A stretch of 64,000 nucleotides of DNA from Octopus vulgaris (taxonomy: Eukaryota), in NCBI GenBank assembly GCA_951406725.2, contig OX597831.1:44268001-44332000 (forward strand). Direction: 5' to 3'. The notes under the pieces were generated by a model. That model made no database searches and had not been told where the DNA came from. It saw only the letters and a list, made by a program, of their open reading frames with translations. Below, piece after piece: positions 4,600 through 63,765 of this stretch; positions within the stretch are counted from its first letter, which is position 1; the number at the start of each line of letters is the position of its first letter. A program made the position numbers and the translations under genes.

Positions 4600-5910
<1,311 letters not shown>

Positions 5911-8222: not shown

Positions 8223-8457
8223 TACCTATTTCTTTATTACCCACAAGGGGCTAAACACAGAGGGGAGAAACAAGGACAGACATAGGTATTAAGTCGATTA
8301 CATCGACCCCAGTGCCTAACTGGTACTTAATTTATCGACCCCGAAAGGATGAAAGGCAAAGTCGACCTCGGCGGAATTTGAACTCACAACGTAACGCAGA
8401 CGAAATACCGCTAAGCATTTCGCCCGGCGTGCTAACGTTTCTGCCAGCTCGCCGCCT
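8223..8457 (-). mobile_element. SINE family B, monomer
   Basis: Reverse complement of the head, core and tail seen at 2186. Confidence 0.85.
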
Positions 8458-11437: not shown

Positions 11438-11666
11438 AGGCGGCGAGCTGGCAGAAACGTTAGCAGGCCGGGCGAAATGCGTAGCCGTATTTCGTCTGTC
11501 GTTACGTCGTGAGTTCAAATTCCGCCGAGGTCGACTTTGCCTTTCATCCTTTCAGGGTCGATTAAATAAGTACCAGTTACGCACTGGGGTCGATGTAATC
11601 GACTTGATCCGTTTGTCTGTCCTTGTTTCTCCCCTCTATGTTTAACCCCTTGTAGGCAATAAAGAA

Positions 11667-11668
<2 letters not shown>
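11438..11668 (+). mobile_element. SINE family B, monomer
   Basis: Complete head, core and tail ending CCCCTTGTAGGCAATAAAGAAATA, inserted in a TA tract. Confidence 0.85.
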
Positions 11669-11706
<38 letters not shown>

Positions 11707-23709: not shown

Positions 23710-24190
23710 GTAGCCAAACCAGTAGGTGTCGCTTCTGACAATCTCTGTTCAAAGGTTTTATTTACCTAGCTTCGGTGGAATACATCCACTTGTTTTCAAT
23801 AATAGAAATATTAAAATTACTAAGTCTCTCTAAAAGAGAACAACGGCAGCGTTCCCGGAAAATATTAGTTATCGCCATACTAATATGGCATTCTTATAAA
23901 AATAAGAATAAAGCTGACCGCTTATTAGCTCCATGTATCAAATAGCTAACTTAAGGCGATGGCCTCATGGAGCTAATAAGCGGTCAGATTTATTCTTATT
24001 TTATAAGAATGCCATATTAGTATGGCGATAACTAATATTTTCCGGGAACGCTGCCGTTGTTCTCTTTTAGAGAGACTTAGTAATTTTAATATTTCTATTA
24101 TTGAAAACAAGTGGATGTATTCCACCGAAGCTAGGTAAATAAAACCTTTGAACAGAGATTGTCAGAAGCGACACCTACTGGTTTGGCTAC

Positions 24191-24232
24191 GCTGCATTGA
24201 AAAGGGGCAATACCCCGAAACGCGTCTGTAGC
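24191..24232 (+). ncRNA. putative type I hammerhead ribozyme (U3-A8 variant)
   Basis: Helix I GCTGCA/TGTAGC; core TTGAAAA; helix II GGGG-CAATA-CCCC; GAAA; palindromic helix III ACGCGT; GTC cleavage triplet (C24226). Confidence 0.75.
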
Positions 24233-24553
24233 TGCCGGCCAAGTAGTGTGGAGCGACTGACCTCCCTTGTTCAAAGGTTATATGGATACAGTTTGTGTAT
24301 CAAATAGCTAACTTAAGGCGATGGCCTCATGGAGCTAATAAGCAGTCAGCTTTATTCTTATTTTTATAAGAATGCCATATTAGTATGGCGATAACTAATA
24401 TTTTCCGGGAACGCTGCCGTTGTTCTCTTTTAGAGAGACTTAGTAATTTTAATATTTCTATTATTGAAAACAAGTGGATGTATTCCACCGAAGCTAGGTA
24501 AATAAAACCTTTGAACAGAGATTGTCAGAAGCTACACCTACTGGTTTGGCTAC

Positions 24554-24595
24554 GCTGCATTGAAAAGGGGCAATACCCCGAAACGCGTCTGTAGC
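24554..24595 (+). ncRNA. putative type I hammerhead ribozyme, copy 2
   Basis: Identical motif, 363 bp downstream. Confidence 0.75.
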
Positions 24596-24916
24596 TGCCG
24601 GCCAAGTAGTGTGGAGCGACTGACCTCCCTTGTTCAAAGGTTATATGGATACAGTTTGTGTATCAAATAGCTAACTTAAGGCGATGGCCTCATGGAGCTA
24701 ATAAGCAGTCAGCTTTATTCTTATTTTTATAAGAATGCCATATTAGTATGGCGATAACTAATATTTTCCGGGAACGCTGCCGTTGTTCTCTTTTAGAGAG
24801 ACTTAGTAATTTTAATATTTCTATTATTGAAAACAAGTGGATGTATTCCACCGAAGCTAGGTAAATAAAACCTATGAACAGAGATTGTCATAAGCGACAC
24901 CTACTGGTTTGGCTAC

Positions 24917-24958
24917 GCTGCATTGAAAAGGGGCAATACCCCGAAACGCGTCTGTAGC
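24917..24958 (+). ncRNA. putative type I hammerhead ribozyme, copy 3
   Basis: Identical motif, 726 bp downstream of the first. Confidence 0.75.
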
Positions 24959-25184
24959 TGCCGGCCAAGTAGTGTGGAGCGACTGACCTCCCTTGTTCAA
25001 AGGTTATATGGATACAGTTTGTGTATCAAATAGCTAACTTAAGGCGATGGCCTCATGGAGCTAATAAGCGGTCAGCTTTATTCTTATTTTTATAAGAATG
25101 CCATATTAGTATGGCGATAACTAATATTTTCCGGGAACGCTGCCGTTGTTCTCTTTTAGAGAGACTTAGTAATTTTAATATTTC

Positions 25185-25263
<79 letters not shown>

Positions 25264-35024: not shown

Positions 35025-35251
35025 TGCGAGCTGGCAGAAACGTTAGCACGCCGGGCGAAATGCGTAGGCGTATTTCGTCTGTCGTTACGTTCTGAGTTCA
35101 AATTCCGCCGAGGTCGACTTTGCCTTTCATCCTTTCGGGGTCGATAAATTAAGTACCAGTTACGCACTGGGGTCGATGTAAACGACTTGATCCCTTTGTC
35201 TGTCCGTGTTTGTCCCCTCTATGTTTAGCCCCTTGTGGGCAATAAAGAAAT
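35025..35251 (+). mobile_element. SINE family B, monomer
   Basis: Complete copy; tail TTTGTCCCCTCTATGTTTAGCCCCTTGTGGGCAATAAAGAAATA. Confidence 0.85.
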
Positions 35252-35827
35252 ATACATTATGCTGTCCCACTTTGTTAAAACGCGTTTACCCACCCCTGGG
35301 TTTCTTTGTTATGCACCTTGGCTCACATCAGTGAGATCTTCTACCTTCCTCTTGCCGTCCCATGTGCTTCATCAATACTCTCGCTCACGTTCTTACCTCC
35401 TCACATCTATGCAATCATACCATCAGCGACCCGATTCTACTGACTCTTTCGCCACAACTTTCTCTCTCTCTTTCTTTCTCCTCCTGCATCTATCAGCTCA
35501 CTTGTGATGGAACGGCGTCCCGTCCACGTGGGGAACCTATACGCCAATAACACCGGGAAACTGGCCCTTATGATCCAGGCATGGCTCGAGAAGGAACATA
35601 TAACAACAACAACAACATATCTGTATATATATATATATATATATATATACATTATGTCTATTTTGTATATGTCATATATCATACACACACACACACACGC
35701 ATATATGTACATACACACGCACGCACACACACATATACGACGAGCTTTTTTTCAGTTTTAGTCTACCAAATCTACTCACAAGGCTTTGGTCGGCCTGAAG
35801 CTAATGTAGAAGACACTTACCCAAGGT

Positions 35828-38457: not shown

Positions 38458-38925
38458 ACAGATACATTCCTCTTTGGTAGAGCTCTCATTGACTTCTTCA
38501 AGATTCACTTGAAAAGGAAATTGAGAGTGGAGAGGGAAGTGCTGTTCTCGAGTGAGTTTATTGGAAGGTGGGTGGAAGTTGCGAAAATAGCAAGAATGGA
38601 TGGTATCTCTCTAAGTGTAAACATGTGAGTCGGAGGGAATGAATTGAAGAGGGCACTTACTCCTGAGGTTTCAGGGAAATCTCGGACTGTGGGGTATCAG
38701 GAGGGTCACATCTCTATCATCCTCCACACCACTTTTTAAAAACCTTTGTACGCTATGCATATGTCCTTTCTTTTTCAGTGTATACCGTGTATACTTACTT
38801 TCTTTCACTTTCTTTTTCATCATTTCGTTATATGTCCACCCCAACACTTTACGTCTGTCTGTATTGATCCCCTCATCCTTCGCCCTTGTGGCAAATAAAT
38901 GAAATCATTATCATTATTATTATTA
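38458..38925 (+). mobile_element. Tx1-like LINE 3' fragment, sister family with an (ATT)n tail
   Basis: GRALIDFFKIHLKRKLRVEREVLFSSEFIGRWVEVAKIAR aligns to the ORF2 C-terminus GHSLINFFKYHLKRKVRMEREVLSRERFNKRWVNVAKMVR. Stop at 38626-38628; 3' end GCCCTTGTGGCAAATAAATGAAATCATTATCATTATT. Confidence 0.85.
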
Positions 38926-42106: not shown

Positions 42107-42431
42107 GTCTACATTCCAAAAATGGATACTTTTTGATAAGACCCAATGCTAATGTCTACAGAGAGATGAAAACGATGGTTGAGTGGATGGATGGATGGAG
42201 GGAGGGAGGGAGGGAGGGAGGGAGAGAATGATGGACGGACGGATGAACGGACGGACGGACGGACGGATAGATGGATGGATTGGAGGTTATATGTGTGTGT
42301 GCATGATAAAAGCAATATAAAATGCATGCTAATTCACTGAACCTGGTAATTTAGTTGATCGAACAACTGACCAGTCGTGGTTGGAAATACCGACCGAGAT
42401 CTATCTATCAATCTATTTTATTTATATTTTC

Positions 42432-42536
<105 letters not shown>

Positions 42537-42633
42537 ATTATCTCTCTATTTATCTATCTATCTATTTTATTTATATTTTTATCTATCAGTCTATCTATCT
42601 GTTTTATTTATATTTTCTTCTATCTGTCTATCC

Positions 42634-42696
<63 letters not shown>

Positions 42697-42741
42697 CATC
42701 CATATCTATCTATCTATCTGTTTGTCTGTCTGTCTATCTAT

Positions 42742-43056
42742 AACACAAACACACCATCATCAAACCCCCCAAAAATGTTGACAGCCATAAACACAAACAA
42801 CCACGACCTAATGGAACACATTAGGTCAAACACTAACATTACTGAAAACGACATAAAAACAAGTAACCACCCACACACAACACCACCACAACACATTAAA
42901 ATAATACACGTGACACAGAACACATACAGCACCCTGAAATCTCTTTACCCTGATGCAGTAGGGAGATTTCAAAAGTACTCATCAAAAAAACTGTATAAAA
43001 GCCTCATAGAAGAAGACCGTGAGGTGAAAGACAAAGAACTTTCGGAAAACAAGTAA
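42742..43056 (+). pseudogene. probable C-terminal remnant of ORF1
   Basis: The frame is open from the 5' junction (NTNTPSSNPPKM...KELSENK*) and ends 42 bp before the ORF2 ATG. It is T/N/P-rich with no diagnostic motif. Confidence 0.55.
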
Positions 43057-43098
43057 CCTTTTCTCTCTCCTTTTCCTTTTTTGCACTTTTATCGGAAC

Positions 43099-46000
43099 AT
43101 GCTCAGAATAGGTAGTATAAATGTACGTGGCTTGGGGTCGCCTTGGAAACAAGGCTACCTGTTAAATGACATCAAGTCACTAAATCTGAATATAATAGCC
43201 ATCAGTGAGACCAGACTCCACAGCTTGCGGGCACTCCAGCACATTTTCGGTACACATTTCAACATTTATTTTTCTCCGTGTCTACCGAGAATGGGCGGAG
43301 GTGGCACCGCGGTGCTTATCCGGAAGAGTCTGGATCTCAAAGTAAGAGCAAATTTCCTAGACCCGGAGGGTAGGCTGGTCGTTTTGGATGTCGATGGCAG
43401 CAATGAGTGTGCTTTTCGACTGATAGCAGTTTATGCTCCGTCCTTAACAGGCCGACCAGATTTCTTTCGACGTCTAGAGTCTTTCATGGGAACGTCTCGT
43501 CCTTTACTTTTAGTGGGGGATTGGAATGCCACCCTGGACACGCATCTAGACTACGTGGGCAGAGATAGCAATAGAAGGGGATGCAAATGCCTCAAAGACC
43601 TGCTCAGACGTTTCCAACTGTCTGACAGGTACCGACTGGACCACCCGAATGTGCCAATGTGGACATGGAGTAACCGCATCGGGTCGTCCAGATCATACTT
43701 AGATAGAGTATTCTGTAGGACAATAGATAAAAATAGTGTAGGTTGTCCACAATTTCATATAGTCAGTTACACAGATCACAAGTTTGTGACTTGTACACTT
43801 GACTTAGATAAGACACATAGGCAGGGTCCTGGTTACTGGAAACTGAACGCGTCTTTTACAGCACGACAGGTTTACAGGGACCGGATCAGCACATTAGTTA
43901 AGAGAGCTTTGACGGGTACCATCATCAACAACAGATGGTGGTATTCCCTAAAAAAAGCGATTAAAGCAGAATCAGTCAGATACAGTAGAGCCCTAGCATT
44001 AGACCGAAATAGAGTAGAGGGAGAATTAGTTAAGGTTTTAGAAGAGGCACTTAGAACTGGCATCGCGTCCAACGTACTGGCGGCGAGATTGGCCCTCGAC
44101 CAACACCTCAACGCCAAACACGAGGGATGCGTTGTCAGAGCTAGGATGCGTGCTCTGAGGAACGAAGGAGTTGGAGCCGCCCAAGAGGCCCGAGTGGTGG
44201 AGACGCAACGAGGCAACAGAGCCACCATCAAGTCTCTTATAGATGAACAGGGGCGCGAATTACTCGAGCCTAAAAGGATGTGTGGGGTTTTTCAACAACA
44301 CTTCACCCAACTGTTTGGGACAAGTGGTGAGTCAGAAAGCAGAGTGGACTTTAGTGCCTACCTGCATGCCTTGCCACGACTCTCAGCAAGGGAGGTGGAG
44401 TCTTGTGAAAAGCCTATCACAGCTGCGGACGTACAGGATGCGATGGTAGGCTGCGCGAGAGACAAGTCACCAGGCTTGGATGGTCTGCCCTACGAATTTT
44501 ATTTTCATATGCCAGACTTGTTTGGAGGCGTCTTGGCAGCTGTCTACTGCAACTGGCAGCAAAACGGGAGTATTCCTGCTTTTGTAAAGCGAGGAGCAGT
44601 GGCACTGATCAAGAAATACCCAAACAAGGGGGACGTCATAGATAATTTCAGGCCCATCACTCTGCTCAACGCAGATTTGAAAATTTTGGCCAAGGTGTTA
44701 GCCGAGAGGTTGGCGCTTGTCATCAAGAAACTAATCGACAAGGCGCAAACATGCGCCGTGCCGGGTAGAAGTATTCATGACAACCTCCATCTGATGCGCT
44801 ACATCATAGACAGGGTAGTTAAAAATCCTGGCATGGGTGGGGCGCTGATCAATTTGGATCAATCAAAAGCCTTCGATAGGGTAGACCATCACTACTTGGA
44901 GGCTGTCCTCAAAGCGGCTGGTTTCGGTCCAGTTTTCCGCAGTTGGATCGCTGCCTTATACAGCGGCATCCGCTCAGTAGTTCGCGTAAATGGTCATCTA
45001 TCCAGACCTTTTAACATCATGCGTTCGGTTCGTCAAGGATGCCCCCTCTCATCGCTGCTGTATGTACTGACTCTTGAGCCACTACTGCGGAAACTGGCGA
45101 CGCTGAGGGGCATCCCACGAGAGCTGGGATGCGGGAGGAGCGTGTCTGCATACGCGGATGACGTCACCGTCATAGTGTCGAGCTACGAGCACATCGAGCT
45201 GGTCGGCGAGACACTGAAAGAATACGAAGCGGTAACGGGAGCAAAAATTAACCGGGAAAAGTCAGTGGGCTTGCGGCTCGGCACCTGGAGAAGCAAGCCC
45301 ATGCCGTCCAACAGCGTCTCCATCGTGGGACGCTGGACGGACGGACCGGTTAAATTGCTCGGGGTCTGGTTCGGTCCGGACCTCCAAATGGAGAAGAACT
45401 GGGGCGAGATAACGACTAGGGTGGCTACTCTCACCCAGAAATGGACTGAGAGAAAGCTATCCCTAAAAGGTCGGGCGGAGGTGGCGAACGCGTACATCGC
45501 ATCCGTCATCGAGTACCGTCTGACCGTCGTGCCTTGTCCCGACCCTACCATCACCAAACTGGAACGCATACTCTTCCGCTTCTTGTGGAAGGGAAACGTT
45601 CCGATGGTCAGGCGATCCATTTGCTGCCAACACCCGCTAAATGGAGGGCTGGGCATGCCGTGGTTGATGATGCGCAGACATGCGCTGAGACTGCGACATC
45701 TCCGGCGCTTCATAGACAACGGTGAACAGGGGTGGTCGCCTTTTGTGCGGCGCGCTTTCCCGCAGCTCGTCTCCTTGGACGAACTACAGTCATGGATCAA
45801 GCAGAGACCGAGGCTAGGCGAATGGCACCGTGAGTGTCGCGTTGCTCTCAAGCAACTCTGCCGTCCGGGATCGAACTTGTGCGACTCCATCACAACAAAG
45901 GCATTCTATAGAGGATTAGTGGAGGGGAGGTGCGACGACGAACTCGGGCAGAGTCTGGGCGTCGACGAGGAACACCTGACCCGCCTGTTCAGGACAACTT

Positions 46001-46536
46001 TCGGGCCGGGACCTATGAACAATCACCAAAGATCCCTGGCCTGGCAGTGCTATCGAGAAGCATTACCTGTTCGGGATAAGCTCTACAGACACGGTTCCAG
46101 ACACACTGGACCGACTTGCCCGAGATGCGGTCAGAGCGACGAAACCGTTCTGCACGCACTCGTGCAATGTCCAACCATTTCCGACCTGTGGGCTTATGCC
46201 GAACGGCTGCTGTCACGTGTGGGACGAATCCGCCTATCGGCCGAGTCTATCGTGAGAATTGCTCCGCCCCCTTCCCTCAACCGGGAAGGCAAGGCAGTTT
46301 TCATCGTACTGGTGGCCATGGTGAAAGAATGTGTGTGGTGGACTCGAGCGAAAGGATTAGAGACAAACACTTACCTCTCTGGCCATTCGCTCATCAACTT
46401 TTTCAAGTACCACTTGAAAAGGAAGGTGAGAATGGAGAGGGAAGTTTTGTCTCGCGAAAGATTCAATAAAAGATGGGTGAATGTTGCAAAGATGGTGCGT
46501 GCTAGTAACGAAACCATTTTGAGCATGATCCTGTAG
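43099..46536 (+). CDS. ORF2p: APE endonuclease, reverse transcriptase and CCHC zinc finger (Tx1-like)
   Basis: APE motifs NVRG, SET, YAP, GDWN, LDR, TDH; GPGYWKLN; RT motifs KSPGLDG, RPITLLN, DQSKAFD, RQGCPLS, YADD; LSLKGR, GGLG; CPRC-x8-H-x4-C. Uninterrupted; first ATG at 43099. Confidence 0.96.
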   Translation: MLRIGSINVRGLGSPWKQGYLLNDIKSLNLNIIAISETRLHSLRALQHIFGTHFNIYFSPCLPRMGGGGTAVLIRKSLDLKVRANFLDPEGRLVVLDVDGSNECAFRLIAVYAPSLTGRPDFFRRLESFMGTSRPLLLVGDWNATLDTHLDYVGRDSNRRGCKCLKDLLRRFQLSDRYRLDHPNVPMWTWSNRIGSSRSYLDRVFCRTIDKNSVGCPQFHIVSYTDHKFVTCTLDLDKTHRQGPGYWKLNASFTARQVYRDRISTLVKRALTGTIINNRWWYSLKKAIKAESVRYSRALALDRNRVEGELVKVLEEALRTGIASNVLAARLALDQHLNAKHEGCVVRARMRALRNEGVGAAQEARVVETQRGNRATIKSLIDEQGRELLEPKRMCGVFQQHFTQLFGTSGESESRVDFSAYLHALPRLSAREVESCEKPITAADVQDAMVGCARDKSPGLDGLPYEFYFHMPDLFGGVLAAVYCNWQQNGSIPAFVKRGAVALIKKYPNKGDVIDNFRPITLLNADLKILAKVLAERLALVIKKLIDKAQTCAVPGRSIHDNLHLMRYIIDRVVKNPGMGGALINLDQSKAFDRVDHHYLEAVLKAAGFGPVFRSWIAALYSGIRSVVRVNGHLSRPFNIMRSVRQGCPLSSLLYVLTLEPLLRKLATLRGIPRELGCGRSVSAYADDVTVIVSSYEHIELVGETLKEYEAVTGAKINREKSVGLRLGTWRSKPMPSNSVSIVGRWTDGPVKLLGVWFGPDLQMEKNWGEITTRVATLTQKWTERKLSLKGRAEVANAYIASVIEYRLTVVPCPDPTITKLERILFRFLWKGNVPMVRRSICCQHPLNGGLGMPWLMMRRHALRLRHLRRFIDNGEQGWSPFVRRAFPQLVSLDELQSWIKQRPRLGEWHRECRVALKQLCRPGSNLCDSITTKAFYRGLVEGRCDDELGQSLGVDEEHLTRLFRTTFGPGPMNNHQRSLAWQCYREALPVRDKLYRHGSRHTGPTCPRCGQSDETVLHALVQCPTISDLWAYAERLLSRVGRIRLSAESIVRIAPPPSLNREGKAVFIVLVAMVKECVWWTRAKGLETNTYLSGHSLINFFKYHLKRKVRMEREVLSRERFNKRWVNVAKMVRASNETILSMIL

Positions 46537-46839
46537 ATCGTAAAAAAGAAAGAAAGAGAGCATTTTTGACCTCATGTGTTTATTTCCTCCCTGACTGGGG
46601 TTCCCGTGGTCTTTTCTGTAGGCTTTTCTTCCCACGGATGAACCCAATCTTGTTATATCAATGTTTACACCATTATTTCTGTGATACACGATTTTCTTTT
46701 TTTCCTTTTTTTTTCCTCCTCTCGATCCCTTTTGATCGCAATCTTACATTTTTATTTTTTTCCACCCTCGAAAAGAAAAGCTCTGCATTTGTATTTGTCC
46801 CCTCTGTATTCAGCCCTGTGTGGCTAATAAAAGAAAGTT

Positions 46840-47700
<861 letters not shown>

Positions 47701-48702
47701 CATGTATCTATATCTATCTTCACCCATCCACCAATCTATATTGATCTCTCCATCTATTTACCTATTTATCCATTCATATATGTATATATGATTATCCGTT
47801 TATCTATCCATTTATCAATCTATCAATCTAACTAGCCATCAATCTACATCTTTTTTACTACTTGTTTTTACTTGTTTTATTTATCTCATATCTCTTCAAG
47901 AACATCACCATCGTACGTAGTTACTAGTTATATTTCCATGTCACGGAGACCGCTTCAATTAAACTTGCAAAAAATGTCATCAGCTTCATTAGACGTCATC
48001 AGTATAGCTTACTGTACATAGAAAAAAAACTGGTTAGATGTTGGCCGGTAGTTTTAGAGGTCATTTGTAAAACTTTAAACACAATAACACCGAATGACTC
48101 AGGTCTATGCTTTGCTCCTTCAGTTTTTCAATATTTTTCTCTCCTGCATTTATTTGTGGGACTGTACAATGCTATAGAGCTCTTGTTTCCCGGCTTTTTC
48201 TTGAAAAACAATTTATCTTTAACCTCCTAACACTGCTGCCTATCTTGATTTCAATAAGCAACATGCTTTCCTCTAAAACACCCCCCACACACATACACAC
48301 ACACACACGCACACTGATAATCGTCTGCTCATATATTTTAACCATACACTCAAACACACATCATCAACCCACCACACGCCTCATGCTGTCATCTTGCTCT
48401 TACCAAACCCATTCGCGTGAAATCTTTCTCATTTGACATGAGTCACGTGATAACCGGTGTAGGCTTCTTTTACGTCCGATAGAATAAGTTCCAGGCTTAA
48501 TTTAATTTGAATTCTGGAGTCGATTTGATCGGCTGAAAAAAATAAACCTTCAAAGCATTTCCCCAGCATGGCTGCAGTTCAATACCTGAAGTAAGAAAAA
48601 GCATAGACGCTGAATCTCTATTTGAACAAGTCTGGGCATTTTATTCAGTGTACTATTTTCGACAATTTTGGCTTTTTTGTTAAAGCCTATTCATAATTCT
48701 TT

Positions 48703-48810
48703 CCACGTTGAAAGCACCGGTTCTCGTCTGATCAACGAAGTTAAGCAACGTCGAGCTTAGTGAGTACTTAGATGGGTGACCGCTTGGGAAACCTAGGTGC
48801 TGTAAGCATT
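48703..48810 (+). pseudogene. 5S rRNA copy lacking roughly the first 12-13 nt
   Basis: CCACGTTGAAAGCACCGGTTCTCGTCTGATCAACGAAGTTAAGCAACGTCGAGC...AGTACTTAGATGGGTGACCGCTTGGGAAACCTAGGTGCTGTAAGCATTT is invertebrate 5S, with box A (AGTTAAGC) and box C. It is solitary, not arrayed. Confidence 0.88.
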
Positions 48811-49214: not shown

Positions 49215-50260
49215 TTTGACACAAGGCGAGTAATTTGAGGGGAGGGAATGTTCAACTGTTACATATCTTTATCGATCTCAAATGGATGAAAGGCAATGTC
49301 GACCTTGGCGAAATTTGAACTCAAAACATAAAGAAACGGAAGAAATGCCGCTAAGTATTTCGTCTGACGCGCTAACGACTCGGGCAGCTCGCTACCTCAA
49401 AATCCATTCGCAATGGCTTCAAACTTTGGCACAAGGCCAGAAATTTTAGGAGAGTGGCTGTGTCGATAACATCGACCTCAGTGCTCAACTGGCCCTTATT
49501 TTAATCGATCCCGAAAGGGTGAAAGGCTAAGTCGACCCTAGCAGAATTTGACCACAGAACGTAAAGAGTCAAAAGAAATACTGCTAAGCATTTTGTCCGA
49601 CGCGCTAACGCCTCTAAGTATATTCATTATGAAAGAAAATACGATAATCTTTTCTACAAAAGTTGGAGCCCGAAATTTTGTGGGGAGGGGCAGTCGATTG
49701 CATCGATCCCAGTGCTCTACCGGTACTTATCTTTATCGTCCTCGAAAGGATAGAAGGCACAGTCGACCTCGGCAGAATTTGAACTCAGATCATAAAAACA
49801 GACGAAATACCGCTAAGCATTTCGCCCGGCGTGCTAACGTTTCTGCCAGAACGCCGCCTTTAATATTCTTTTCTACTCTAGGCACAAGGCTCGAAATTTG
49901 GGAGAAGGGTCCAATCGATTAGATCGATCCCAGTACGCAAAGGGTACATAATTTATCGAACCCGAAAGGATGAAAGGCAAAGTCGACCTCGGAGGAATTT
50001 GAACTCAGAACGGAAAAACAGACGAAATACCTATTTCTTTACTACCCACAACGGGCTAAACACAGAGAGGACAAACAAGGACAGACAAATGGATTAAGTC
50101 GATTATATCGACCCCAGTGCGTAACTGGTACTTATTTAATTGACCCCGAAAGGAAGAAAGGCAAAGTCGACCTCGGCGGAATTTGAACTCAGAACATAGC
50201 GGTAGACGAAATACCGCAAAGCATTTCACCCGGCGTGCTAACGTTTCTGCCAGATCGCTG
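49215..50260 (-). mobile_element. cluster of 4-5 SINE family B copies in the same orientation
   Basis: GAAAGGATGAAAGGCAAAGTCGACCTCGGCGGAATTTGAACTCAG and variants are repeated. Confidence 0.8.
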
Positions 50261-50414
50261 CATTAAAGATTCATTCATACTGGGAAAAAATAAGATAATG
50301 CGTTGTCGTTTCACAAAGCAAATCAAAAGTCTCAAATACACTGGTAGCCAAGCGATGATGAGGGAACAAAAACAAAGACGCACACACATCGATATATATA
50401 TATATATATACATA

Positions 50415-57400: not shown

Positions 57401-57997
57401 ATACCTATTTTTGTTTCTTTATTGCCAACAGGGGGCTAAACACAGAGAGGAAAAATGAAGGGATTAAGTCAATTACATCGACTCCAGTGCGTAACTAGTA
57501 CTTATTTAATCGAACCCGAAAGGATGAAAGGGAAAGTCGACCTCGGAGAAATGTGAACTCAGAATGTACCGGTAGACGAAATACCTATTTCTTTACTACC
57601 CACAAGGGGCTAAATACAGAGAGGACAAACAAGGACAGACAAACGGATTAAATCGATTATATCGACCCCAGTGCGTAACTAGTACTTATTTAATCGACCC
57701 CGAAAGGATGAAAGGCAAAGTCGACCTCGGCGGAATTTGATCTCAGAACGTAGCGGCAGACGAAGTACCTATTTCTTTACTACCCACAAGGGGCTAAACA
57801 CGGAGGGGACAAACAAGGACAGACAAACGGATTAAGTCGATTATATCGACCCCAGTGCGTAACTGGTACTTATTTAATCGACCCCGAAAGGATGAAAGGC
57901 AAAGTCGATCCCGGCGGAATTTTAACTCAGAACGTAGTGACAGACGAAATACCGCTAAGCATTTCGCCCGGCGTGCTAGCGATTCTACCAGCTCGCC
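57401..57997 (-). mobile_element. SINE family B, one head plus three tandem bodies
   Basis: ~185-bp units joined at TACCTATTT (about 57402, 57582 and 57767), with a single head at the right end. Confidence 0.85.
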
Positions 57998-61584: not shown

Positions 61585-61970
61585 TAATCCTTTCTTCTAT
61601 AGGCACAAGGCCTGAAATTTCGTGGGTGCATATAATTCGATTACCAGTGCGTAACTGGTACTTATTTCATCGATCATGAAGGGATGAAAGGCAAAATCGA
61701 CCTCAGCGGAATTTGAACTCGGAACGTAAAGACAGATGAAATACCTATTTCTTTGCTACCCACAAGGGGCTATGCACAGAAGAGACAAACAAGGACAGAC
61801 AAACGGATTAATTCGATTATATCGACCCCAGTGCATAACTGGTACTTTTTTTTAATCGGCACCAAAAGGATGAAAGACATAGTTGACCTCGGCGGTATTT
61901 GAACTCAGAACGTAGCAGCAGATGAAATACCACTAAGTATTTTGCCCGGCGTGCTAACGTTTCTGCCATC
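61585..61970 (-). mobile_element. SINE family B dimer
   Basis: Head plus two bodies, with the same GAAATACCTATTTC junction. Confidence 0.8.
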
Positions 61971-62426
61971 TCAGCGCATTTTGTTCGGTTATTAATTTTT
62001 TCTTTTAAATAGCAAAAATAAAACACCAATCTTACATTAATCTGATGCTTTACATTTGTACTTTTACAAAGTACAAGTTTATCGTTCTTGTATACAAGAA
62101 CGTTGTTGATAATCACTTCGAAATTTTGACTAGCTAAGCCATCATCAGATATATATATATATATATATAAAATTGAATAAGCATAGAAATTGATATTAAT
62201 CAATTAAAACCAGTGTCCTAGCATATTAAAAAAATCCGAAGATTAAAATATTTTTACATACAATATTTAAAGGACTGACCACTAAAAGTGGACGGTCAAC
62301 ATGCTAGATATAGACGTCAAAATCGCTATTTTCCTCGAAGAATGTGTTCTCAAATAAAAACTCAGCACAAACCAAAGTGTAAAAATAAGCAAGACAAATG
62401 AAAATGTACGAAATAATAACGATTAC

Positions 62427-63344: not shown

Positions 63345-63488
63345 TAAATAAATTGTATGTTAATTATTTATGTATTTCTCATTATATTAATTATAAAACC
63401 AAAGTGAGATCAATCTGAAGCAGCGAGATGAATCTGAGGCAACGATATCTAGGGCGGCAAAATCAATCTGGGGTAGCGAGAAATACAA

Positions 63489-63765
63489 GGAGAGCAGCAC
63501 TTCCCTTTCTACCCTCACTTACCTTTTCATGTAGAACTTGAAAAATTTGATGAGAGTTTGGTCGAAGAGGAAAGTATGTATCTCCAGTACTTACAACCAC
63601 GTCCACCGCACTACTTCTTTCACTATAACCACTAAACAGAGGAAAATTGTCTTCCCTTCCTTTAGGGCAGGGCCGTTCACTTCGATTTCCGAGATGTCCG
63701 ACACTATTACGGTGACGTTGTCCTCATAAGCCGACACGAACTTTCTGCATCCTAATTCTCACGAG
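63489..63765 (-). pseudogene. Tx1-like ORF2 remnant with an internal deletion
   Basis: RELGCRKFVSAYEDNVTVIVS...LKE is joined directly to GKTIFLCLV...VKEVVRWT...TLIKFFKFYMKR*VRVEREVL. Both parts align to the intact ORF2. Confidence 0.8.

Follow-up and report, generated by a model that had tools for sequence, protein, structure and literature searches.

A Tx1-clade LINE of Octopus vulgaris lying within (TATC/GATA)n arrays: evidence for a preferred, probably not exclusive, microsatellite target

Introduction

Does a retrotransposon that lies inside a (TATC)n microsatellite choose that repeat as its target, or does it carry the repeat along as its tail? The question is raised by a long interspersed nuclear element (LINE) that begins at position 42742 of a 64,000-nucleotide stretch of Octopus vulgaris DNA (GenBank assembly GCA_951406725.2, contig OX597831.1, positions 44,268,001 to 44,332,000, forward strand); this whole stretch is called the window below. 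A first-pass annotation, made from the letters alone, described the element as an intact Tx1-like retrotransposon apparently specific for (TATC/GATA)n microsatellites. Our analysis leads us to lean toward a modified view, in which an abundant octopod Tx1-clade LINE family prefers existing (TATC/GATA)n arrays as insertion sites, though probably not to the exclusion of others, and its endonuclease sets most of the preference. That there is a GATA preference at all, whether set by the enzyme or guided by the RNA, we regard as quite probable.

Results

TATC arrays on both sides of two copies

Tandem Repeats Finder (TRF) called TATC arrays that abut both ends of the main copy (Table 1). At the 3' end, AATAAA is followed by AGAAAGT and then by TATC, and poly(A) is absent at the junction, as the first-pass annotation had stated. 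An exact block of 198 bp is common to the two flanks (42491-42688 = 47063-47260). Because both flanks carry the same rare interruptions in this block, we conclude that the element splits one compound array. The whole compound block of about 250 bp upstream of the element (42491-42741) recurs at 47063-47305, 224 bp beyond the 3' end, with only repeat-number changes. It may be an unusually long target duplication, which would be indistinguishable from the array's own duplications.

The same recurrence could be explained if the locus had been distorted, by a duplication after insertion or by mis-assembly, so that a piece of the 3' array came to stand ahead of the element; no contig among those listed spans the whole stretch. 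We consider such distortion very improbable. Blocks of this kind are typical of the 3' array, which has further duplications inside it, and the start of the 5' array is not copied on the 3' side. Moreover, a second copy independently shows the same arrangement.

This second copy is a diverged 3' fragment inside a compound array near the start of the window. It aligned with the main copy at 81.4% identity over 97 columns (46749-46845 versus 5543-5449, minus strand; E 9e-19), and in element polarity it is preceded by (TATC)18 and followed by (TATC)28. An independent 3' fragment within a GATA array had been reported in the first-pass annotation, and both the fragment and its quoted junctions proved correct. 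The fragment opens with a 52-nt hairpin (5512-5563, minus strand) of 18 pairs (z -4.21; 0 of 200 shuffles were equally stable), which represents either a fold-back that formed at the 5' junction or a stem of a subfamily 3' untranslated region (UTR). Both close copies in the window (2/2) thus have TATC of the same polarity on both sides, and their truncation points differ. Because the 5' TATC sits upstream of two different truncation points, it is not a tail encoded by the element.

The chance of such a flank was estimated from the positions at which the preceding 24 nt hold at least three TATC. These are 1407 of 127,940 in the window (0.011), and 137 of 123,964 (0.0011) when the element-linked arrays were masked. 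The fragment has such a 5' flank; the main copy does not, though it lies inside a TRF-called array. Neither copy's 5' array is preceded by the 3' end of another copy. TATC runs of three or more units cover 1156 bp of the window, with 96 bp outside the element-linked arrays. Other repeats of the window are commoner (ACAT 1484 bp, AT 1400 bp, AC 690 bp), and none of them flanks either copy.

These figures bear on the alternative that TATC is a mere tail that the element carries and that seeds microsatellites, the 5' arrays being explained by slippage growth of a short target duplication, by chance, or by the persistence of insertions in neutral repeats. The two copies did first draw notice through their arrays, no empty site was seen, and the many-contig evidence given below covers the 3' side only. 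We nevertheless find this alternative improbable, because the 5' arrays, of 343 bp and ~340 bp, are both long and compound, the chance of a same-polarity TATC flank at an independent fragment is 0.011 at most, and passive survival should also have used the commoner ACAT, AT and AC tracts.

Family size and 3' ends in public contigs

In 20 of the 24 listed runs (9 studies, two organisms), 0.75-0.84 of 427 sampled words were present. Contigs matching at 80% likeness numbered 34,750, 30,782 and 21,913 in three DNA runs, and the matches span every identity band from 99+ to under 90. Contig counts and depth are not copy numbers and were not used as such. The family is large and diverse and includes near-identical members.

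Behind 46831 the loose ends gave a TATC-periodic consensus in two runs, X1 (149 contigs, agreement 0.55) and X9 (180 contigs, agreement 0.57), which represent two organisms. The ends of a short interspersed nuclear element (SINE), described below, are intermixed in both, and the consensus is not per copy. In a toy simulation of 13 mixtures, a periodic consensus required roughly 20% or more of in-phase TATC. It arose in 98% of draws with 20% in-phase TATC, as against 29% with 10%, and mixtures lacking TATC never gave one. An agreement of 0.57-0.58 fits 30% in-phase or 60% phase-scattered TATC. The simulation is rough, since how the contig tool defines "agreement" is not specified. Viral contigs gave 0 loci in a protein scan and 0 matches to a 21-nt 3'-end pattern, and prokaryote genome contigs likewise gave 0 matches to a 21-nt 3'-end pattern.

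A 5'-truncated copy with a whole ORF2

The second open reading frame (ORF2) is unbroken from ATG to TAG, and its length of 1145 aa is as first described. Pfam domains were found at 6-222 (Exo_endo_phos), 510-756 (RVT_1) and 978-1031 (zf-RVT), the endonuclease region covering about aa 1-235. Residues N8, E37, D141, N143, D202, D226 and H227 of the endonuclease catalytic site are retained, consistent with the predicted apurinic/apyrimidinic-type (APE) endonuclease. The reverse transcriptase (RT) keeps D587 and YADD (685-688), and a C-terminal finger, CX2CX8HX4C, lies at 1007-1024. Human LINE-1 ORF2p was the top PDB relative by sequence (E 6e-61) and also gave the top PDB fold matches to the AlphaFold model of ORF2, whose mean predicted local distance difference test score (pLDDT) is 70.5. 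The endonuclease hairpin loop has 9 residues between its anchors, and pLDDT is below 50 at 189-199.

ORF1 is reduced to 104 codons that are 66% identical to residues 174-271 of the O. bimaculoides protein A0A0L8HAA8 (271 aa); a search with this protein gave 7 matches, 3 of them named O. bimaculoides. Among the ORF1 relatives, P0198 carries a CX2CX4HX4C zinc knuckle; P0196 has only part of the knuckle and about 120 residues more on its upstream side. In most of the long distant metagenome loci among those listed, an ORF of about 390-620 aa that encodes 1-3 knuckles lies upstream. The idea of an ORF1 that is naturally short and without a knuckle was dropped once longer, knuckle-bearing relatives had surfaced. 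An ESM Atlas search with the ORF1 homologue gave no usable match.

Since only the C-terminus of ORF1, starting at homologue residue 174, remains upstream of ORF2, the copy is 5'-truncated and cannot be called intact, as it had been. It is a young insertion with ORF2 whole, and it is unlikely to be autonomous because the 5' UTR and most of ORF1 are missing. An X8 contig matches 42742-44805 with 3 differences and extends 648 letters beyond 42742; the simplest reading is that it comes from a longer copy of the element. At the 5' junction (42733-42750), the frame reads SIYNTNT versus SINTNT in the O. bimaculoides homologue. Judged from protein only, the truncation point may have been fixed by a TCTAT-like microhomology that the cDNA and the array have in common.

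Table 1. Coordinates of the element, its flanks and related features in the window
Feature	Position	Strand	Evidence
5' portion of compound (TATC)n array, upstream flank of insertion	42399..42741	+	TRF; repeat decomposition
ORF1 C-terminal remnant, 104 codons, 5'-truncated end of copy, zinc knuckle gone	42742..43056	+	O. bimaculoides A0A0L8HAA8 match
ORF2, 1145 aa, APE endonuclease / reverse transcriptase / C-terminal finger	43099..46536	+	Pfam, residues, AlphaFold model
Endonuclease betaB6-betaB5 hairpin loop, T189-S199	43660..43695	+	alignments to 1vyb and 2v0r
3' UTR, ends AATAAA (46826-46831) plus AGAAA	46537..46836	+	sequence, blast
3' portion of compound (TATC)n array, downstream flank	46839..47846	+	TRF; blast; decomposition
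Diverged 3' fragment, same family (~81%)	5456..5563	-	blastn
Compound (TATC)n/(CATC)n array enclosing the fragment	5336..5910	-	TRF; decomposition
SINE occurrences	2186-2720, 8224-8457, 11438-11669, 35026-35252, 49254-50261, 57414-57996, 61644-61972		

Clade placement

The closest named relatives of the element's proteins, among the matches listed, are from Argonauta hians (65%) and, for ORF1, from O. bimaculoides. For the RT tree, 191 candidate proteins yielded 175 RT regions and, after thinning at 80% identity, 101 rows; loci without an ORF of at least 600 aa were left out. The tree was a quick IQ-TREE run under LG+G4 with Shimodaira-Hasegawa-like approximate likelihood ratio test (SH-aLRT) support only, no bootstrap and a long-branch warning. 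Its rows include no named Repbase reference, and Tx1 identity is by proxy of flanks.

The window RT grouped with P0001 and the Argonauta protein (SH-aLRT 99). These three rows and 18 unnamed ENA/JGI proteins (~41% identity) form a 21-row clade of their own (SH-aLRT 100), and a 71-row clade (SH-aLRT 95) holds the window RT together with loci L001, L007, L013 and L015, which are flanked by U2 small nuclear RNA (snRNA). The 5S-flanked loci L016 and L021 (in the tree via the near-twin L020) fall farther out. The metagenome scan yielded 80 loci. Almost all are distant (24-34% identity, with two short segments at 44-45%); none is in this family, and they were used only as tree anchors. Rfam was run on 40 of the 80, and ARAGORN found 0 tRNA genes in the 54 to which it was applied. 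No named Kibi or Koshi protein is among the 120 matches listed or the 80 metagenome loci.

Membership of the Tx1 clade is well supported. The U2-flanked neighbors in the tree uphold the affinity first proposed, and the APE endonuclease, RT and CCHC finger expected of the clade are all present. The zinc knuckle of Tx1 ORF1 was lost by truncation in the main copy; it is seen in P0198 and partly in P0196. The flanks are TATC-class, not the (TC)n, (TTC)n, (TTCC)n or (TTTC)n that are the targets of the Kibi/Koshi group.

Two distant metagenome loci showed other associations. An L1/Tx1-like element ends in (ATTG)n at L048:4174-4209, a possible microsatellite tail or target, and a U1 snRNA match follows a Tx1-like element at L031:9076-9230, possibly marking a U1-associated family.

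Other Tx1-like pieces and a SINE with the same terminus

Two further Tx1-like pieces lie in the window. An older 3' fragment at 38458-38925 (plus strand) has 61% aa identity over 46 residues, a different 3' UTR and the same kind of terminus, and it is possibly a sister subfamily with another repeat. The other piece, at 63450-63760 (minus strand), is degraded, an internal deletion having joined its RT and C-terminal segments.

The last ~50 nt of the LINE's 3' UTR are common to the second fragment, the older copy and an abundant SINE of about 235 nt, which often occurs in 184-bp tandems. The SINE gave 23 blast hits in the window, with 10 complete ends. Six of the 10 join the SINE body at GGTA, and the rest show unique TAGGTAT, (TA)n, TATAC and CAAAAATAGGTAT, one each. 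With none continuing into TATC, either a sister family moves the SINE, or the endonuclease is less strict than "GATA only" would imply. The shared terminus suggests a Tx1-type element as the partner of the octopus SINE. The SINE head reads as tRNA-like from its A/B-box-like motifs; Rfam gave no tRNA match for the SINE in the window. A conserved stem-loop in the LINE and SINE 3' termini was considered and found unsupported, since these termini fold no better than shuffles (z 0.31, -0.37, 0.51).

A single 5S rRNA-like sequence (48689-48808, plus strand; 72.9 bits), with another SINE-like repeat immediately behind it, lies 1.8 kb downstream of the element. The window also contains a 363-bp tandem repeat at 23934-25190 (3.5 copies, 99% identity).

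Discussion

How strict is the preference?

Several observations weigh against targeting of GATA by this family, above all in a strict form. The first-pass annotation placed both junctions in (TATC)n; TRF arrays do abut both ends, and the 5' junction itself lies in degenerate TGTC/TATC sequence, where the final 24 nt before the element hold a single TATC. No clean target-site duplication is readable at the main copy, and no empty site was seen. Among the Tx1-like pieces of the window, only 2/4 lie in TATC: the older piece (38458-38904) ends in (ATT)n, and the degraded one has neither a tail nor a TATC flank. None of the 10 complete SINE ends runs into TATC.

The contig data are also limited in this respect. 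Loose-end agreement is no higher than 0.55-0.57, the X1 consensus begins with TA repeats, X8 (7 contigs) shows a SINE-type end instead, and X2 has no row there among those listed. The loose-end rows listed include no 5' flank from further copies, so that 5' flanks are known for two copies only, and a 3' consensus by itself cannot separate tail from target. Finally, the endonuclease hairpin loop, which has a role in specificity (PMC1950540), is L1-length and thereby falls 2 residues short of the Tx1L loop graft. The length of the loop is not diagnostic, as the loop of site-specific R1Bm is 2 residues shorter than that of L1 (PMC1950540).

What stands of the proposed GATA targeting is the family-wide 3' TATC and the two truncated copies with 5' TATC; its strictness is called into question by the (ATT)n-ended older copy and by the SINE ends.

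Enzyme or RNA guide

Tx1 is one of two APE clades that have site-specific members (PMC6007223). In the mechanism that we favor, ORF2p would nick the GATA strand, the freed 3'-OH would serve as primer for cDNA made from the RNA 3' end (...AATAAAGAAA), and this synthesis, or the joining step, would break off early, in the main copy inside ORF1. The scheme follows target-primed reverse transcription, by which L1 and Tx1 elements insert. The endonuclease would supply most of the site choice, and a transcript reading through into downstream TATC might sharpen that choice by base pairing with the GATA strand once it is nicked. The payoff would be an abundant, mostly harmless insertion target, as for Kibi and Koshi.

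The preference could instead be real but RNA-guided. A loose endonuclease would nick TA-containing simple repeats, and efficient priming would be limited to transcripts that can base-pair with the nicked GATA strand through their 3' TATC. The tail of each subfamily or SINE would in that case decide where it lands: TATC for the family described here, ATT for the older copy, and TA or TAGGTAT for the SINE. This explanation draws on the ~50-nt 3' end, which is common to the LINE, the (ATT)n-ended older copy and the SINE, yet is followed by different sequence in each. Nine of the 10 SINE ends go on with TA, and one SINE (11438-11669) stands between TA repeats. The L1-length loop of the endonuclease also fits, and a tail-guided model has been proposed for RTE elements (PMC6007223). 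On the other hand, the AATAAA just ahead of the junction suggests that the RNA can end before TATC, the purified Tx1L endonuclease is sequence-specific by itself (PMC1950540), and the SINE may be mobilized by a sister family with another endonuclease. We therefore rate RNA guidance as the main, though rather unlikely, alternative to a preference set mostly by the enzyme.

A more elaborate history can be offered only tentatively. An octopod Tx1 lineage separate from Kibi and Koshi may have gained microsatellite targeting independently and split into GATA and ATT subfamilies, the conserved 50-nt 3' end also driving the SINE and the GATA subfamily being active with a GATA-specific APE endonuclease. 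If this is true, the octopus genome offers a natural series for asking which of the two, enzyme or RNA tail, brings about a switch of target.

Implications

If the preference is real, GATA, a mixed purine/pyrimidine repeat, joins the Tx1 targets, and microsatellite targeting by Tx1 reaches the cephalopods in a large family with near-identical copies. The related LINE ends and the SINE have one 3' terminus in different landing contexts, which makes the question of enzyme versus tail testable with natural variants. Octopus GATA microsatellite markers may have mobile-element flanks in common. The shared terminus also indicates that a common octopus SINE has its partner among Tx1 elements.

Comparison with known elements

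A GATA-targeting Tx1 element was not found in the literature searched, which left most subscription papers, Repbase and Dfam outside its scope, and the words GATA and TATC have 0 occurrences in the main text of PMC4494074. To this extent the novelty first claimed for the target holds; tetranucleotide Tx1 targets as such (TTCC, TTTC) have already been published (PMC4494074). There is some chance, which we consider the lesser one, that the family or its target is already catalogued. A curated repeat library of O. vulgaris holds 80 L1-Tx1 families, 13 of them recently active with 421 insertions (PMC13282606), and the octopus GATA family is probably among the 80; the parts of that paper covered here contain no target-site analysis of these families. 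The word Tx1 is absent from PMC9115989 and PMC12988792, and the portions of PMC4758252 and PMC3747384 covered name no Tx1 partner for an octopus SINE.

Catalogued Tx1 targets include TC, TTC, TTCC, TTTC, U2, U5, 5S, satellites and transposons, a family being taken as target-specific when more than 20% of its flanks are of one type (PMC4494074). Tx1 elements are well known to switch from one microsatellite to another. The octopus family is likely a known kind of element with a new target; it is no new mechanism or class.

Human LINE-1 ORF2p (PDB 8sxt, 9k6i; endonuclease 1vyb) has the same catalytic residues and hairpin-loop length as the octopus ORF2. L1 ends in poly(A) and favors TT|AAAA (PMC6007223), whereas poly(A) is missing at the DNA junction of the octopus element. 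The U2-flanked (L001, L004, L007, L013, L015) and 5S-flanked (L016, L021) loci, assigned with Rfam, are about 28-30% identical to the element and would be of Keno type and Mutsu type, respectively, if labeled from their flanks. Keno-type and Mutsu-type elements have snRNA or rRNA flanks; no snRNA or rRNA was found at either junction of the octopus main copy. The same simple-repeat strategy is used in other clades and with other targets by Waldo (ACAY), Mino (AC), Dong (TAA) and Togen (TG), and the passages covered list none of these with GATA. Of the microsatellite targets, ACAY, AC, TC, TTC and TAA were reported in PMC3812793 and TG was added in PMC4640811; how APE-type elements choose microsatellites is not well understood (PMC3812793). 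The nearest parallels are Kibi at (TC)n, Koshi at (TTC)n and the crocodilian (TTCC)n and (TTTC)n families, which likewise are Tx1-type elements with APE and RT and with both junctions in a microsatellite (PMC4494074, PMC3812793). The octopus element differs from them in its TATC/GATA target, where theirs are pure pyrimidine repeats, and in its octopod host, where theirs are fish or crocodilians.

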